DNA of 50,476 nucleotides, from NCBI GenBank assembly GCA_028280605.1, contig JANQLL010000103.1, forward strand, positions 1-50,476, given 5' to 3'. Shown here in pieces: positions 14,802 through 22,912 of the stretch. This DNA comes from Candidatus Gastranaerophilales bacterium (GTDB taxonomy: Bacteria > Cyanobacteriota > Vampirovibrionia > Gastranaerophilales > JANQFW01). The first letter of the stretch is position 1. The number at the start of each line of letters is the position of its first letter. The position numbers and the translations under genes are program-made. The notes beneath the pieces were generated by a model, which did no database searches, was not told the DNA's origin, and worked only from the letters and a program-made list of their open reading frames with translations.

Positions 14802-15509
14802 TTAGCCTCTTGACTTATCTTGTCTCCACCACTCCCAGGAATACGGATTCTTTGCAAGAGAGCCATAGAATTCTTCCGGTACAAATGCTTCAGATATATA
14901 GTCTTCTATTGTAATATACTTCATATAATTTTGAGGTAATCCAGTAGCATTACGCATTAATTCCATTCCTTCAACTGCAGGAGATGCTATACCTAACCAA
15001 GGATCAACTACAACAGCATTTTTACCCCAAGTTTTTGGATCTTGCAAACTTGCGCTTCTTTTTAACCCACAAACTACAAAGTTATGCTCTCCAAATGATT
15101 TAAATTTATCAAAAGTCTTATTAGGGCTTTTTTCCTTTAAGTGTTCAGGAAGTTCAAATGTTAGCACAGCAACTTTTTTAGCACCTTTTCTTCTCAAATA
15201 CTTTGCTGCAATAAAAGCTTGCTCTTCACAATTGCCAACGCCTTTATTTAAACAGAGTTCTTCAATATAATCAATAATATCCTCAAATCTTTTTGTCAAA
15301 GCAGAAATTTTATCTTTTGCCTTTATGTCTTTATATATGTCAACTTCATCCCTTAAATTTTCTATATAGCCATCTGCTTTGGTATACACGTCTTTTTCTA
15401 AAGTGCCGTTTAATACCTGACGTGTTGGAGATACTAATTGATAAGATTTGACCTTTTGTACTGCTTCTCTACTCAATGCAAGGTTAGATTGAAGAGTATT
15501 TATTGCCAT
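14802..15509 (-). CDS. Transglutaminase/papain-fold protein, HopX(AvrPphE)-like
   Basis: GVGNCEEQA ... EHNFVV ... AVVVDPW putative Cys-His-Asp triad. Confidence 0.6.
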   Translation of the reverse strand: MAINTLQSNLALSREAVQKVKSYQLVSPTRQVLNGTLEKDVYTKADGYIENLRDEVDIYKDIKAKDKISALTKRFEDIIDYIEELCLNKGVGNCEEQAFIAAKYLRRKGAKKVAVLTFELPEHLKEKSPNKTFDKFKSFGEHNFVVCGLKRSASLQDPKTWGKNAVVVDPWLGIASPAVEGMELMRNATGLPQNYMKYITIEDYISEAFVPEEFYGSLAKNPYSWEWWRQDKSRG

Positions 15510-15853
15510 TTCTTATTTTTATCCTTTTCAAAATTTTATTATTTTATTAAATCTTTTAAAAATAAAATATAAAAATAGAAGAAATTGCTATATGTCAACA
15601 AAAATATTTCATATAAAGTTTACGTGAGCCCACAAGCTACTGTAAGTTAATATTTTAGCATAACCCTGCACTGGCAAGGCGTTTAAGGTGTAATGACTAT
15701 TACCTAAAAGACGATTGTAAGAAAAAATAGCAAATGATAACAATATAACTACCTGTGACAGGAAAGTAGTGATTAAATTATCACCACCATCCATTTGATA
15801 GTGGGAAATATTGAATTTTTTTACCAAGTGCAGTAGAGAATAAGGGGTGAAAA

Positions 15854-16402
15854 ATGAAACGATTTTATGAGGGAAAAAAAGTAAACTTGCGAGAAGCAGA
15901 AGTAAGCGATGCGGAATTTATCCTAAGTCTTAGAACGGATGACAAATTAAGCCGATTTATAAGTAAAGTAGATAATGACCTTGAAAAACAAAAGCAGTAC
16001 ATACTTAACCATCAACACATAGGCGAAGATTGTTATTTTATTGTTGAAAGTAAAGACGGTGAAAAATATGGTACTGCACGAATTTATGATGTAAGAGGTG
16101 ACAATTTTCAAGGCGGCAGCATGATTAGCAAACACAATACACCATTTTACGTTGTATATTGCGGTTATTTTGCATTTTTTGATTATGCTTTTTTTGAGTT
16201 AAACAAAAAGTGTTGTGAAATTAATGTTGTAAAAGGCAATGATAGCGTTATTAATCTTCATAAAAGAATGGGGGCAACCTTAATAAATGAAGATTTTGAA
16301 AAGGTATATTTTATTTACCCAAAAGAAACATATATTGAATCAAGAAAAAAATATTCAAAATATACACTAGAAAGAGAAATTAGAGAGTTGGCTTGTAATT
16401 AA
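15854..16402 (+). CDS. GNAT N-acetyltransferase (RimJ/RimL-like)
   Basis: VNLREAEVSDAEFILSLR, YGTARIYD, VVKGNDSVINLHKRMGA. Confidence 0.88.
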   Translation: MKRFYEGKKVNLREAEVSDAEFILSLRTDDKLSRFISKVDNDLEKQKQYILNHQHIGEDCYFIVESKDGEKYGTARIYDVRGDNFQGGSMISKHNTPFYVVYCGYFAFFDYAFFELNKKCCEINVVKGNDSVINLHKRMGATLINEDFEKVYFIYPKETYIESRKKYSKYTLEREIRELACN

Positions 16403-16410
16403 TATTTACT

Positions 16411-16577
16411 TATACTCCCACTAAAATACTTTTCAGATTATTAAATCGAGTAAAGTTAATAAAATAAACTATTCTCTGAATTGCGAAGCGGGAGTGTTAA
16501 AAAGTGAAATGGTCAATTTTACTTTTTATAAACTCATTCAAAAGAGTAATCTGAAATTTAATTAGATGAGCAGTATA
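16411..16577 (+). mobile_element. MITE-like repeat, long form (167 bp)
   Basis: ~30-bp imperfect TIRs TATACTCCCACTAAAATACTTTTCAGATTA / TAATCTGAAATTTAATTAGATGAGCAGTATA; internal hairpin. Confidence 0.8.
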
Positions 16578-16600
16578 AAACCTTTGATTAAGAGTATAAC

Positions 16601-16891
16601 TTAAGCAAAGGTCTTAAATGATCTTTCGATATTTTTATCAATGACTTTTTTAATACCATCATATTCAGTTTGTACAATTTTATGTTGTGTTTCCAAGTTT
16701 TTCTGTTGTATTTCCAATTCTCTGTCTAGAACTCTCAGCTGATTAGCCAGTTGCGGATAATTATTAGCCGCTTCTTGAGCTCTAAACGCCAAAGCGGTCC
16801 TTCTTTGACTAATCATTTGAATCGCATATTCCAGGTCTGATTGCCTTGCAACTAGCATCATCAAACGAGCTTGACTGGCAACTAATCCCAT
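16601..16891 (-). CDS. Lineage-specific helical-hairpin protein (MGxxASQARL...DKNIERSFKTF family)
   Basis: AGGGAG RBS; coiled-coil heptads; paralog at 18824. Confidence 0.85.
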   Translation of the reverse strand: MGLVASQARLMMLVARQSDLEYAIQMISQRRTALAFRAQEAANNYPQLANQLRVLDRELEIQQKNLETQHKIVQTEYDGIKKVIDKNIERSFKTFA

Positions 16892-17077
16892 TGTTTAAAC
16901 TCCCTTAGATTAGAAAAGTAATAAACGCTTATAATTTGATTTAGTAAAATAAAACTATAATAAACACTCTCATTATATTATTTAAGAATATATAATGATA
17001 AATATTGGTTTATTAGAAATTTAAAACTCTTTTGTTTATTATGATGATAAACAAAATGCTTTTCTCTCTTTTGAATC

Positions 17078-17226
17078 TATACTAGCTTTTTAGATTATTG
17101 AAATGAATCATATAAATTATACTCTGAAGTAAGGCTCAGAAGTTTAAAAAATAAAATAGCCAATTTGAATTTTTTAAACTCATCGTTACTAAAGGTTGAT
17201 TGAATGTTAATTGAGTAAGTAGTATA
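17078..17226 (+). mobile_element. MITE-like repeat, degenerate long form
   Basis: TATACT...AGTATA ends, internal segment resembling 16490-16540. Confidence 0.55.
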
Positions 17227-17331
17227 GAAATTTAGGTTAAGTTTAACGCTCCTTTTTATTTAAAATAAATGCCTGTAACTTATACGTGTCCACTAATACC
17301 GTTTTTTTATGTTAGGTAGGGTTTATAACTC

Positions 17332-17369
17332 TGTTATATATATAAAAAATATATAAAATAGATAATTGC
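17332..17369 (-). promoter_or_regulatory. Conserved promoter-like motif (copy 1)
   Basis: GCAATT-N14-TTTTTT-ATATAT-ATAACA, followed by GAGTTATAAACCCTACC shared with the 19440 copy. Confidence 0.55.
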
Positions 17370-18226
17370 GTTTTGAGAGTGATTTTATTAACTTATATTA
17401 AGTTGATTTTATATAAAGCCCTATTACTAGATAGTATAAAAAGCATCCATTGCAAAATCCGCTTCTTTTAGCCTTAAAGAGAGCCAAAAAAAATATTCAA
17501 TTATGTGTTGCAGATAATTTAAATAAAAGTAGGCAATGATATTCTCTTTATTGAAAAAGAGGAAAAATAGGCACACTTATCCCATAAGCGGGAAAAATAA
17601 TGCTTGGAAATTAAATTTTGCGTGGCTTGCGCATCCTTTAATCTCTTGTAAAATAATGGTTTTAACAATTGATATAATATTTGATTGTTGATATAAAACA
17701 TATTTAATGCTTGTTTTTTATTTTTATTAGTAGTTTGTGCTGATGTGGCATCAGCTTTATTGTTTTTATTTATTATTATTTTCTTTTTTAATTCTTTTAA
17801 AAATAAAAATATATTATAAAAATACATATCAATATGTGCAAAAGCACAAAGAGAAAGCTTTTTTCCGCTAGTTTGATTTTGTTGCGCCATAATTGGGCAC
17901 AGGAATGCTATAATGTTCCACAAAATGATGAATAAATTTTCGATGTAGCTTGTTAAATTCATTTTTTATAGCCTTTAAGTCTCTTCTGTAAAAAGTTAAA
18001 ATTTTAATATATTTACATTTTATGTATTTATTATATATTTTAACATTTTTTTGAAATATCCGCAGGCTCTCAAAGTATACAAATGCTATTTTTGTAACAT
18101 TAGTTAATAAATTCGCCAATATTAAATTTAAAAGAAAGAAACAACAATTTCTTACTTATCAAATGATACTAATCTTTACGAATCAAAAAACCGTTACATG
18201 CCCTGATTTAATAACCTTATACTAAA

Positions 18227-18332
18227 TATACTTCCACTAAAATACTTTTCAGATTATTAAATCAAGTTAGAGTTAATAAAATAAACTATTCTCTGAAAAG
18301 AGTAATCTGAAATTTAATTTGAGAACAGAATA
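18227..18332 (+). mobile_element. MITE-like repeat, 106-bp form
   Basis: Near-identical to the 16411 copy without the ~60-bp internal segment. Confidence 0.8.
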
Positions 18333-18823
18333 AAAATGACAAAAAAAAATATATAGAGGAAAAACTTTCCTGTATATATAAGTTACTTATAATAATATAC
18401 AACAACATACTACTGAAAAAAATAAATACTGCTTAAATATATGCCGTTAATAATTATTAACGCAAAACTTTTTAATCGATTTTAACTATATTTTAGGGAT
18501 ACAAATAATATCAATAATAGGGCGCTGATCTTCGTACACTTATATCTAATACATCTATTTTTGCATACAATAATCTAATATTAAGCCATCCTATAAGCGC
18601 ATCATTTTTGTTTTTTGTAGACTTATTTGGGCACAGTTATTTTTCTAAAATGCTCTTTAAACGCCTCTGTAATATCTTTTACACATATTGCAGTTTATTA
18701 TTATTTAAATCTGAGCTTTTATAGCCATATATAACAACCAACCAAATAATTGTCTTGGGTAAAACTTTTAGTTACTACTTAACTTATACTACCATTTATT
18801 TTTAAAATAATTTGACTTACGTA

Positions 18824-19120
18824 TTAACCGAATATTGATTTATATGCAAAGTCTACATTTTTATCAACCTGCTTTTTAGTGGCTTCTTCGTGTGTTTGTA
18901 TAATTTTTAGTTGAGTTTCGAAATTCTTTTGTTCCAGTTCCAGCCTTTGATCTTCTATTTTAAGAGCTTGATTAGGACCTTGCGGAGAATTACCTTGTTG
19001 TTGTTGTCCCATTATGTTTGCTAATTGGGTTCTTTTATGAGATATTTGTTGAAGGCGAAACTCCACATTCGCTTTTCTGTTAATTAACCCTAGCTGCATC
19101 GCTTTTTGAAATGCTACCAT
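18824..19120 (-). CDS. Helical-hairpin protein, paralog of 16601..16891 (98 aa; start revised from 19201)
   Basis: GGGAG RBS before ATG 19120; QISHKRTQLA / LELEQKNFETQLKIIQT / DKNV align with the paralog. Confidence 0.8.
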   Translation of the reverse strand: MVAFQKAMQLGLINRKANVEFRLQQISHKRTQLANIMGQQQQGNSPQGPNQALKIEDQRLELEQKNFETQLKIIQTHEEATKKQVDKNVDFAYKSIFG

Positions 19121-19439
19121 TCTAAAATCTCCCATAGGTAAAGTAATACACACTTGTAATATTGTTAATAATAAATTGAACCAATAATACCACCATAACA
19201 ACCTAAGTTCTTTTCATTATTTATTGCTATATATAGTAATAAATAATGTTCAATTTACTATGAATATAAATTAAATTTGATAGGTAAAATTTTAAAATAA
19301 TTCAAAGAATTTAATTCTACTACTTATTATTAAGCTTAGTACTCATATAATATGAATACCTTTTACTTATACAGTTTTACTATAATAACCATTTAAATAT
19401 ACTTTAATAACCATCTCATTTGGGTAAGGTTTAAAACTC

Positions 19440-19477
19440 TGTTATATATAAAAAAACAAACAAGGATAAATATTTGC
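19440..19477 (-). promoter_or_regulatory. Conserved promoter-like motif (copy 2)
   Basis: GCAAAT-N14-GTTTTT-TTATAT-ATAACA-GAGTTTTAAACCTTACCC. Confidence 0.55.
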
Positions 19478-19598
19478 CTTTTCATGTTATAATTATTAAG
19501 TTATATTACAAATAACATCAAATTATCATATAATTTGATAAAATCATAATTAACTTATAAAATATTAGTGGATCTTTAGTGTTTGGAGGAGAGGTTTT

Positions 19599-20321
19599 AT
19601 GAAAAAATTTTTAATAACAACATTAGCTGCTTTATTGTTTGTAAATATAAATAATGGCATAGCTATGGGACAAAATATACAAGATCTGTCTTCCCAAAGT
19701 GTAATTAAAGCTAATATACAATCCCAAAGAATACCGATAGGCACAAAAATTAAATTAAGAATGGAGAATCCTGTAAACTCACAAAATTCGGCATTGGGAG
19801 ATTCTTTTATTTGTACAATTATGGAAGATATTATTGTAAATGATGAACTAATTTTACCGGCAGGCTCAATTATTAGAGGAAAAGTAGAAAATATAAAAAA
19901 GAACGCATTATTTTGTATTGGTGCAGAAATGACTATATCTCTAGAACATATTGTTACACCGGTCGGCAGGCAAGTTCCGTTAAAGGCTCGTCTTACAGGC
20001 ATTAACGGTTTAACTGATGAAGGTGTAATACGTGCTGGAGGCGGATATTTTAATCAATTGGAAAAAAATATGGATCGTAGCTCTGATGTTTTTCATAGAA
20101 TAACGAATGCTGGTCTTGAGTATGGTCAATCTATAGGAAATGGATTTCCTGTTGTTATAACAGCCCCGGCTGCGGCGGTAGGAGGTATTTTTGTTGGTGG
20201 TGGAACCTTTGTGACAAAATCAGTTATGGCTTTATTTAAAAAAGGACCAAACGTAAAAATCCACCCCGGAGATACATTTGAATTAATAACAACAGAAACT
20301 CTGGATATTCCTTCACATTAA
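19599..20321 (+). CDS. Exported protein with TrbI/VirB10-like beta domain
   Basis: Signal peptide; IPIGTKIKLRM, ILPAGSIIRGKV, KGPNVKIHPGD. Confidence 0.7.
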   Translation: MKKFLITTLAALLFVNINNGIAMGQNIQDLSSQSVIKANIQSQRIPIGTKIKLRMENPVNSQNSALGDSFICTIMEDIIVNDELILPAGSIIRGKVENIKKNALFCIGAEMTISLEHIVTPVGRQVPLKARLTGINGLTDEGVIRAGGGYFNQLEKNMDRSSDVFHRITNAGLEYGQSIGNGFPVVITAPAAAVGGIFVGGGTFVTKSVMALFKKGPNVKIHPGDTFELITTETLDIPSH

Positions 20322-21652: not shown

Positions 21653-22912
21653 TTAGTCAATGCGTCTTAGATGTGTAACATCAAACGCTTCACATTCTTC
21701 TTTAGTTAATGCTCTACATTCCATAACGGTTTTTCCTAGAATACCGCTTAAGCTATGGAAATCACCTTCAGGATCAACTGTTATACCACTACTTTCAGCT
21801 TTTATATGTACTTTAGAATTTGTATCAGGTGTTGTTATGTACATTTGATTTCTGTAGGAATGAACAGTAGTGCCATCTTGTAGCTTGTGTTGACCATAAT
21901 TAAGAGCTTTACCATTAAGGTACATTTCCCCGGATTTAGTAAATTGTATATTATCATTGCCTGCTTTTACATTTAAGGTTCCAACAACCTGTGGATTTTT
22001 CGGGTCTTTATATGGAACATATTTGCCATCTATTTGTAAATTATCGCCGCTGAAGATGTTATAAGTGTTATTATCTATACCTTTGTGGTCAAATTTTATT
22101 CTTTTACCATTTTTAGCAACAACGTCATAATGGGGATCACCCCATTCGCCTCGTCCCTCTTTAGCTATATTATATTCTTTTGGAGGAGGGGGTGGAGGTG
22201 TCTTTATTGTTTTTATAGCTGTATTTACATTATTGACTAAGCCTTTAAAATCATTAACAGCTGCATTGGCGGCTTTGTTATAAATTTCCTGCTGAATATG
22301 TTGATTCAGCTGCGTATAAGTTTCTCTTACAAGACCATTAAAAATTTCCATCCTCATTTGATTAAACATATTTTGAAAACGATTTGCTAATGTATTAGTT
22401 GAAGGCATTTGCGGTGGTCTTGGAGGAACTTGCTGTGGGCTAGGCACCGGCTGCATAGGTCTTTGTTGTGGCATTGGTCTTGGCATTGATGCAGGAGCAG
22501 GTCTACTTGATCTTAAACCATTTAATATATTTAATAATTGACCTATTTGACCCATTAAAAAATTATTTGATTGACTGTTTAGTATTGGTGAATGTTTTGT
22601 TTGTACTACCGGCTTGTAGTAAGCTTGCGCAGGAATACCTGCAGGTGGTCTATAAAACTGTGGTGGTATCTTTGCAAGTCCTGGAGGTGGTGGATTAGAA
22701 TTTATCTGATTAATTGAGTTCCCATTGCTAACATTGACATTTTGGGAATTAGTTATAATATTAGAATTATACATAGGTGATTTGCCAAGCATATTATTAG
22801 TATTAAAAATACTGTCAGATGCACTAGGTGCAAAGCTGAATTTTTGTATTAATGAGTTTAAGCTTACGTTTAAATTATTTGAAAAAGGATCATTATAATT
22901 ATTAATTGTCAT
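21653..22912 (-). CDS. N/P/Q-rich protein with C-terminal GDPH (VWD-like) beta domain
   Basis: Low-complexity N-half, PPPPPP linker, then GEWGDPHY and terminal GILGKT; AAAGGA RBS. Confidence 0.75.
   Translation of the reverse strand: MTINNYNDPFSNNLNVSLNSLIQKFSFAPSASDSIFNTNNMLGKSPMYNSNIITNSQNVNVSNGNSINQINSNPPPPGLAKIPPQFYRPPAGIPAQAYYKPVVQTKHSPILNSQSNNFLMGQIGQLLNILNGLRSSRPAPASMPRPMPQQRPMQPVPSPQQVPPRPPQMPSTNTLANRFQNMFNQMRMEIFNGLVRETYTQLNQHIQQEIYNKAANAAVNDFKGLVNNVNTAIKTIKTPPPPPPKEYNIAKEGRGEWGDPHYDVVAKNGKRIKFDHKGIDNNTYNIFSGDNLQIDGKYVPYKDPKNPQVVGTLNVKAGNDNIQFTKSGEMYLNGKALNYGQHKLQDGTTVHSYRNQMYITTPDTNSKVHIKAESSGITVDPEGDFHSLSGILGKTVMECRALTKEECEAFDVTHLRRID

Follow-up and report, generated by a model that had tools for sequence, protein, structure and literature searches.

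Among described systems, the closest counterparts of the proteins reported here are the flagellins and hook-associated axial proteins (FliC/Hag, FlgK and FlgL; PF00669/PF00700 and PF00460/PF06429), the needle and filament subunits of type III secretion systems (T3SS; PrgI/MxiH, EspA) together with their tip and translocator coiled coils (SipD/IpaD, IpaB), the WXG100/ESAT-6 proteins of type VII secretion (PF06013), the ESCRT-III/PspA/Vipp1 proteins, which form polymers, and the FlgZ-type proteins HP0958 and CT398, which are associated with flagella and T3SS. The locus compared with them consists of two small genes, here named C and D, in the genome (G000) of a Candidatus Gastranaerophilales bacterium. 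They lie in a stretch of 50,476 nt (positions 1 to 50,476 of contig JANQLL010000103.1, assembly GCA_028280605.1), which as a whole is called the window below, and they encode the shortest, insert-less members of a large family of helical hairpin proteins, referred to as the hairpin family. Among the genomes searched this family is restricted to some non-photosynthetic cyanobacterial lineages (Vampirovibrionia/Melainabacteria). We propose, with a probability of roughly 0.4, that C and D are Sec-independent structural subunits which are exported through the flagellar export machine and assemble through a conserved base, C acting with its neighbouring paralogs A and B as a core subunit and D as a minor or specialised one.

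In one of the first genome descriptions, six of nine Gastranaerophilales genomes are said to retain only a subset of the flagellar genes (PMC4040986). A preprint gives complete flagellar sets for about 25% of the genomes, the rest keeping genes such as flhB, fliI and flgG, and postulates that the retained subset serves secretion (bioRxiv 10.64898/2026.04.24.720558). No description of the hairpin family was found in full-text searches on Melainabacteria/Vampirovibrionia flagellar genes and secretion.

C and D are real genes, and their positions are listed in Table 1 with those of the other features of the region. The two open reading frames (ORFs) are co-oriented, and their products share 39 of 95 positions (41%; BLASTP E 3e-22), far beyond chance. 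A strong GGGAG ribosome-binding site precedes each ATG by 8 nt; the one before C is also found in two sister genomes of the same genus (G301 and G302), and the corresponding motif of D, CCTATGGGAGAT, is kept in both. The frame of D is open upstream to a TTG at 19201, and it is the ATG at 19120 that has GGGAG before it; the sister orthologs of D begin MGLAV, the start in the present genome being displaced by one codon. The product of C matches in full, from residue 1, the N-terminal family motif MG[LM]xxSQxRL...RKSDLE..Q and also the C-terminal motif ...TQH...TE.D.VKKVIDKNIE.SFKTF[GA] that closes the protein. That of D begins MVAFQKAMQLG, without the N-terminal family motif and with G2, S6 and R9 lost, and its C-terminus is degenerate (TQLKIIQTHEEATKKQVDKNVDFAYKSIFG), the SFKTF element being lost as well. 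The family profile scores C at 141.8 bits, the best value in its own genome, and D at 88.3 bits. Neither protein contains a Trp residue, so neither can hold a WXG motif. An earlier sequence-only reading of this DNA had claimed two co-oriented 96- and 98-residue paralogs with differing loops, strong GGGAG sites and no WXG motif, and on each of these points it was right.

Table 1. Features of the C–D region, in positions of the window.
Feature	Position	Strand	Basis or remark
Gene C, 96-aa canonical minimal hairpin	16601..16891	minus	ORF; MGLVASQARL...DKNIERSFKTFA
Gene D, 98-aa divergent, fast-evolving minimal hairpin	18824..19120	minus	ORF; MVAFQKAMQLG...DKNVDFAYKSIFG
GGGAG ribosome-binding site, gene C	16900..16904	minus	read from sequence, 8 nt before ATG
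GGGAG ribosome-binding site, gene D	19129..19133	minus	read from sequence, 8 nt before ATG
Miniature inverted-repeat transposable element (MITE) copy (~107-bp element), directly downstream of gene C	16411..16585		449 blastn matches, own genome
Second MITE copy, between D and the inserted small gene	18227..18340		335 blastn matches, own genome
~680-bp repeat, a multi-copy small gene, between D and C	17435..18113	minus	147-aa ORF 17519-17962
Conserved non-coding block, copy 1, ~420-510 nt upstream of C	17312..17400	minus	79% to copy 2
Conserved non-coding block, copy 2, ~300-390 nt upstream of D	19420..19508	minus	79% to copy 1
235-aa ORF	14802..15509	minus	starts MAINTLQSNLAL
419-aa ORF	21653..22912	minus	array neighbour, also in G301 (463 aa)

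A family profile search over 1.84 billion representatives gave 3881 members (50%-identity clusters) at E ≤ 1e-3, 2408 at E ≤ 1e-10 and 105 at E ≤ 1e-30. No Pfam match was obtained for C or D even with listing to E ≤ 10, and no NCBIfam match; a PDB sequence search was negative (best E 0.11), and the ESM Atlas returned unnamed Melainabacteria clusters only. The large unannotated family that had been claimed in the sequence-only reading does exist, and no characterised family claims C or D. Member lengths ranged from 105 to 652 residues among the 150 matches listed. Long members match the profile in two stretches, at the N- and the C-end, and their extra length is therefore an insert at the turn; the tip loop is permissive, and in other paralogs it accommodates inserts that reach 550 residues or more. 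A word-indexed search gave 1294 members of at least 281 residues, and the 120 long members listed carried no precomputed Pfam domain and no name other than 'hypothetical protein' from Gastranaerophilales metagenome-assembled genomes. When 108 members of at least 170 residues were scanned against Pfam, a domain was found in one of them, the 593-residue protein P0153, whose loop insert combines PT-rich linkers with repeats of a dockerin-type calcium-binding segment (Dockerin_1, E 2.9e-13). P0153 starts MGMAASQARF and has no signal peptide. Dockerins and PT linkers are extracellular modules, as in cellulosomes.

Conservation was assessed in 168 members, the highest-scoring ones of the family, so that the percentages are upper bounds: M1, G2 and S6 were conserved in 100% of them, and Q7, R9, E21, D72, E92 and K109 in 98–99%. 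The conserved positions are concentrated at both ends of the chain, which come together as the hairpin's base. This base is formed by M1, G2, S6, Q7, R9 ... E21 and Q25 of the N-helix and by D..LE...T..H...TE...K..IDKNI..FK.F of the C-helix, and polar side chains are frequent among the invariant residues (S6, Q7, R9, R16, E21, Q25, D72, T84, T91, E92, K98, N103 and K109).

The AlphaFold2 model of C (25-row alignment; predicted local distance difference test, pLDDT, 91.1) is an antiparallel two-helix hairpin with helices at residues 3–44 and 46–95, and each minimal protein is predicted to form a single coiled coil, antiparallel and with arms of about 45 and 50 residues. A 197-residue paralog from the same genome (contig C158) was modelled as the same hairpin with longer helices (3–49 and 139–196; pLDDT 91.4), and at the hairpin tip it is predicted to carry a small alpha/beta domain of about 90 residues. 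The helix-loop-helix anatomy with conserved termini and a variable loop that had been read from the two sequences holds in this confident model. Foldseek against the PDB gave no match at E ≤ 0.001 for either model, and no structural match for the tip domain. A wide VIA-align search with C returned a flat list of generic hairpins, 295 chains having Z ≥ 8, in which CT398 (Z 12.4), moesin (11.8), IpaB (11.8), Shrub/Snf7 (11.4–11.7), prefoldin (11.1), HP0958 (11.1) and PspA/Vipp1 (10.8) stood together; the tool itself warns that long helices generically score up to a Z of about 13. A four-copy prediction of C gave scores of 0.38, 0.32 and 0.00 against a mark of 0.42 and was used for neither side of the argument.

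A profile search (jackhmmer, all six-frame ORFs of the assembly) found nine paralogs in the present genome, namely C and D, two of 96 residues on contig C219, the 197-residue protein, two of 125 and 111 residues on C126 and two of 119 residues on C209. Per genome, the profile matches numbered 7 to 15 or more, and about 14 paralogs were counted in the complete, flagellin-less genome G153. The distribution in a class sample of 301 genomes, which included the present one and was identical for each query, is given in Table 2. FlhA was found in each of the 150 hairpin-bearing genomes. In 84 of the 98 genomes of family f2, the hairpin family, at high copy number, and FlhA occur without flagellin and FliS. 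In an order sample of 101 genomes, 98 had the flagellar sigma factor FliA (TIGR02479, E ≤ 1e-50), among them all 67 of f2. In a phylum sample, also of 301 genomes, the hairpin family was found in all 123 f2 genomes and the present one, and in 0 of the 177 others.

Table 2. Hairpin family and flagellar proteins in the class sample, by GTDB family code (cut-offs: hairpin family E ≤ 1e-5; FlhA, PF00771; Flagellin_N E ≤ 1e-8).
Family	Hairpin	FlhA	Flagellin_N	FliS
All, incl. G000	150/301	202/301	97/301	95/301
f2	98/98	98/98	14/98	14/98
f3	2/2	2/2	2/2	2/2
f4	0/96	1/96	0/96	0/96
f5	0/30	29/30	30/30	30/30
f6	19/19	19/19	19/19	17/19
f7	0/9	9/9	0/9	0/9
f8	0/12	12/12	0/12	0/12
f9	0/3	0/3	0/3	0/3
f10	25/25	25/25	25/25	25/25
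f11	0/1	1/1	1/1	1/1
f12	5/5	5/5	5/5	5/5

In the same-genus sister genomes four minimal hairpin genes stand head to tail in the order A-B-C-D, flanked by DnaK and a 130-residue gene on one side and by a 238-residue gene and CinA on the other. The 'pair' of the sequence-only reading holds as far as C and D are co-oriented paralogs, and is to be corrected in that they are half of a four-gene array and not a stand-alone pair. In the present assembly A and B are located at the end of contig C219, which stops inside a MITE. That end (16723–16860) matches positions 16411–16546 of the window at 97% and in the same orientation, and the position of the MITE is exactly that expected for the end of the B-C spacer. 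The array is probably contiguous in this genome as A-B-MITE-C-[small gene + MITE]-D, and the MITE is the likely cause of the break between C219 and the window. Logan contigs of two DNA runs (15000–16437 and 16534–17482) also break inside the MITE and none bridges 16437–16534, and for this reason the join of the window to the GNAT gene at 15854–16402 is without independent support.

Selection on the array, estimated by the Nei-Gojobori method from non-synonymous (dN) and synonymous (dS) divergence, is sharply divided. Orthologs of A, B and C have dN of 0–0.11 at dS of 0.7–1.4; C of the present genome and C of G302 are 100% identical in amino acids at dS 0.71, the dN/dS ratio (omega) of C is 0–0.07 and that of A is 0.003. 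Neighbouring genes at the same dS gave omega values of 0.038 (DnaK), 0.08–0.09 (the 238-residue gene) and 0.13 (CinA). The D orthologs of the sister genomes are 43–52% identical (dN 0.44–0.53), and their omega of about 0.5 is only a rough value because dS is saturated; the pace of evolution of D is about 10 times that of C. D is nonetheless intact in all three genomes, with 95–98 residues, and the positions that it has lost (G2, S6, R9 and the C-terminal SFKTF) are 98–100% invariant in the family. From the dN/dS contrast and these motif losses it follows that C is the frozen canonical member and D the fast-evolving one; D is a re-specialised or relaxed member. The purifying selection on A to C is extreme, every residue being constrained, and is compatible with packing through multiple interfaces.

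A sigma-28-type promoter was recognised for one paralog of the same genome. The hairpin gene at C126:17147 lies 44 nt behind a perfect site, TAAAG-N16-CCGATAT, of the same type as that of the flagellin gene on C209 (TAAAG-N15-TCGATAT), and the strict pattern has 17 sites in the genome. A looser regular expression gave 107 matches genome-wide, mostly noise. Among minimal genes two convincing sites were found; they belong to orthologous pairs of family f12 and lie at −95 and −96. With sites at C126:17147 and in the f12 pairs and none at C and D, the sigma-28 link is true for some paralogs, not for C and D.

In the mechanism that we favour, the hairpins would leave the cell without a Sec signal through a flagellar-type type III export machine, the conserved base would dock or pack them into a surface or extracellular assembly, and the assembly would display the variable tip. 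The stalk or core might then consist of A to C as bare subunits, with the fast-evolving D as a minor or specialised component. Export, which the sequence-only reading had suggested together with polymerisation or heterodimer formation, is indirectly supported by the nesting of the family within FlhA-bearing genomes, by its persistence with FlhA and FliA after the loss of flagellin, by the sigma-28 promoter of the paralog, and by the dockerin of P0153 in a protein that has no signal peptide. The proposal is also in keeping with a flagellin-like design, and assembly is compatible with the constraint on every residue of A to C. The likeness to flagellins and axial proteins lies in the near-invariant, pairing terminal helices, the hypervariable middle that takes large inserts, the many tandem paralogs, the lack of a signal peptide, the sigma-28 site on at least one paralog operon and the occurrence only alongside FlhA. 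Unlike these proteins, minimal members of the hairpin family are a single 96-residue hairpin without a D1-like domain, their extreme N-terminus (MGLxASQxRL) is invariant and not variable or disordered, and the family needs no FliS and persists when flagellin is lost.

Several observations weigh against this proposal. The link between hairpins and FlhA is one-way, since the flagellated f5 genomes (flagellin in 30/30, FlhA in 29/30) and the 21 FlhA-bearing genomes of f7 and f8 have no hairpin gene; moreover, the counts follow phylogeny, and related genomes are not independent events. FliS is lost with flagellin, and the known filament chaperone is therefore unable to serve the hairpins in 84 family-bearing genomes. 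The dockerin is one case in the 108 long members scanned. The N-terminus of C is predicted to be helical from residue 3, whereas classical T3SS substrates are disordered there. A sigma-28-type site (TAAA-N-CCGATA) is absent from the 549 nt upstream of C and the 480 nt upstream of D, the best candidate having 3 mismatches, and likewise from the regions before A to D of both sister genomes; one oddly spaced candidate precedes A of the present genome, and in arrays of five genomes a candidate was found for just 3 of 20 minimal genes. Finally, hhalign gave a probability of 6% over 12 columns against the N-termini of eight axial proteins of the same genome and 0.4% against their C-termini, and 0.3% against its five flagellin/FlgL proteins, the reversed control reaching 0.6%.

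On the strength of these hhalign results, and with no Pfam match at E ≤ 10, a kinship of the hairpins to flagellin or to axial proteins was rejected. A supposed likeness of 'GLxAxQ' to the axial motif SGL..Q...NN.AN failed in the same comparison. FliS as a chaperone of the hairpins was likewise rejected, as it vanishes together with flagellin.

Rather unlikely, in our estimate, is that the hairpins stay in the cytoplasm as coiled-coil adaptors, chaperones or regulators of the export gate or its regulon, in the manner of FliJ, FlgN, FliT or HP0958/FlgZ, and bind their partners via the base. The simple hairpin fold and the lack of a signal peptide would suit such a role, and the co-occurrence with FlhA and FliA fits it equally well. 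CT398 is the top VIA-align row for C, with a root-mean-square deviation of 1.1 over 94 residues, and HP0958 is also among the top rows; the insert-bearing 197-residue model gave weak rows only, to V-ATPase subunit D and to tip proteins (E 0.07–1), whose architectures it weakly resembles. The match of C to CT398 and HP0958, however, does not exceed unrelated rows in a flat list whose Z values are generic, it is limited to the coiled coil at 9–16% identity, and the two proteins are single-copy, of about 240 residues and provided with a zinc-ribbon domain. Nine paralogs in this genome and some 14 in G153, with hypervariable inserts, are unlike single-copy chaperones; a dockerin with PT linkers makes little cytoplasmic sense, and no Pfam match to those chaperone families was seen at E ≤ 10.

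A more far-reaching form of the export proposal, which we regard as unlikely, has the hairpins build an appendage or surface layer not seen before, which would join the flagellum and the injectisome as a third product of flagellar-type type III export. The FliE-FliF-FliH-FlhA2-FliI basal-body cluster, which flagellum-less gut Melainabacteria retain, would then supply the machine. A shaft would be made of the bare 96-residue proteins A to C; variable domains, the dockerin among them, would be added to it by insert-bearing paralogs, and divergent members of the D type would start or cap the structure. With T3SS needle and filament subunits the minimal hairpins share a helix-loop-helix of 80–100 residues, a Pro-containing turn and conserved termini as a packing surface, and with the tip and translocator coiled coils the IpaB row and the tip proteins among the weak rows of the 197-residue model. 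They differ from needle proteins in copy number and loop inserts and in having no sequence or Pfam match to them; needle proteins are absent from the structural rows listed, where the hairpin matches are non-specific with scores generic for hairpins, and both FlhA-bearing clusters of the genome that were inspected are of the flagellar type (FliE/F/H/I, FlgB/C/F/G, FliP/R, FlhB).

Export without polymerisation, in which the hairpin would be an export or anchoring handle of effectors, adhesins, cohesin-dockerin-type display modules or WXG100-like heterodimers, appears to us quite improbable. Surface-exposed or interaction proteins would fit the variability of the tip domains, the dockerin of P0153 and the rapid change of D, and tandem paralog pairs are common; WXG100 proteins, too, are helical hairpins of about 100 residues in tandem paralog pairs. 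Against it, the bare 96-residue members carry no cargo and yet are the most conserved. Neither W-x-G, Trp nor a Pfam WXG100 match is present in C or D, conservation in the hairpin family is at the termini and not at the turn, and the hosts are relatives of cyanobacteria.

The best Foldseek row for C, at E 0.29, was the PspA hairpin 4whe (TMq 0.88, 22% identity), and Snf7, Shrub, CHMP4B, Vipp1 and Asgard ESCRT-IIIB were found by VIA-align at Z 10.7–11.7. These rows, with residues 3–15 of C, which are unusually hydrophobic on more than one face and might act as an anchor, would agree with a cytoplasmic or membrane-associated polymer of the ESCRT-III/PspA/Vipp1 type on the inner membrane. The shared geometry concerns the length and arrangement of the alpha1-alpha2 hairpin only: the model of C has two helices, and alpha0 and alpha3-alpha5, the further helices that define the superfamily, are missing. 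PspA and Snf7 do not fit the hairpin more closely than unrelated hairpins do (prefoldin, moesin, colicin, SMC), no sequence signal was obtained from Pfam or from the PDB search, and the tie to FlhA and the sigma-28 promoter of the paralog would be left unexplained. We consider a polymer of this kind very doubtful.

That C and D are chance ORFs or decaying remnants, an idea that the AT-rich spacer (25% G+C, with three mobile-repeat insertions) might invite, is refuted by the dN/dS of C, the intact state of D in three genomes, the thousands of homologs and the confident fold, and has practically no probability left.

The spacers were mapped by blastn of positions 16381–19620 against the whole of the own assembly. 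The ~107-bp MITE is scattered through the genome, and many contigs terminate in it. The ~680-bp repeat between D and C has 56 blastn matches; 12 copies are full-length, and all 12 have an open frame of 148–190 residues that starts (K)MNLT..LWNI..FLCP. This insertion is absent from the D-C spacer of both sister genomes. The MITE copies and the inserted small gene are not part of the hairpin family, and since the sequence likeness downstream of C and D is the MITE, it is no feature of the hairpin genes. Of the long AT-rich leaders that the sequence-only reading had described, the long AT-rich spacers stand, and much of them proved to be mobile DNA.

The conserved upstream block which had also been noticed there is genuine: its two copies are alike over 91 nt, it is present before C and D in the present genome and in both sister genomes (6/6 regions) and in 0/5 of the A/B regions, and its core has two copies only in the own genome. 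RNAalifold found zero conserved pairs in the 6-sequence alignment of the block, which may be a regulatory site at the DNA level, a promoter or an operator. Neither Rfam (gathering thresholds) nor ARAGORN found RNA genes in the window. A scan for sigma-70 promoters gave 27 sites against 23.8 ± 5.7 in shuffled sequences and is uninformative in DNA so rich in AT.

The flagellar equipment of the genome comprises four flagellins, an FlgL-like gene, FliS, FliA, rod and hook genes and two FlhA-bearing clusters. These flagellar-type clusters are on contigs C63 (1–14000) and C90 (4000–16678); one has the order FliP-FliR-FlhB-FlhA (881 bits) and the other FlgF/G (two copies)-FlgC-SLT-FliE-FliF-320-residue gene-FliH-FlhA2 (691 bits)-FliI. 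FlhA2 is an FlhA paralog that outlasts the flagellum. The flagellin-less genome G153 keeps a cluster of the FlhA2 type (C1:752000–772000; FlhA 731 bits), and among f2 genera of the class sample the best FlhA scored about 730 bits, with two matches, where flagellin was missing and about 865 bits, with three matches, where it was present. FlhA2 as a perfect marker of the hairpin family was rejected, given that f5, f7 and f8 have FlhA genes and no hairpins.

Two operons begin and end with a hairpin gene. That of the present genome (C126:17147–19546) has inner genes of 291, 78 and 95 residues, and that of G153 (C1:776499–779373), about 9 kb from the FliE-FlhA cluster, has inner genes of 272 and 90 residues; no Pfam family was found for any of the inner genes. 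ORFs of 291, 95, 78, 171 and 680 residues next to other paralogs gave no Pfam family either, except for one weak YtxH match below the cut-off.

Two neighbours of C and D in the window are included in Table 1. In the 419-residue ORF the N-terminal half is of low complexity and rich in Pro, Gln and Asn; Pfam and NCBIfam gave no match. The 235-residue ORF has a Cys...His...Asp-like pattern (GNCEEQ, EHNFVV, VVDPW) that resembles papain-like or transglutaminase-like hydrolases; no Pfam family was found for it, and its sole match was to the NCBIfam type IV secretion system effector Ceg14 at E 0.0044, far below the cut-off. Among public runs, the stretch 16590–19620 was listed for only two, both of them DNA runs that belong to a single study and carry the label coral metagenome (shares 0.84 and 0.73); the run with the higher share may be the sample from which the window was assembled, and no RNA run was listed.

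The hairpin family comprises thousands of clusters and is more conserved than DnaK, and it has neither a name nor a Pfam or NCBIfam model. It is the best candidate so far for the role of the 'leftover' flagellar export genes in flagellum-less gut Melainabacteria, a question that dates back to the first genome descriptions (PMC4040986). The minimal array offers the simplest experimental handle on it, with four proteins of about 96 residues of which three are nearly invariant and one is fast-evolving. Should these proteins be cytoplasmic, they would still be an uncharacterised, strongly constrained component of the flagellar regulon; should they be exported and assemble, a widespread gut lineage would possess a new class of structure built by type III export.

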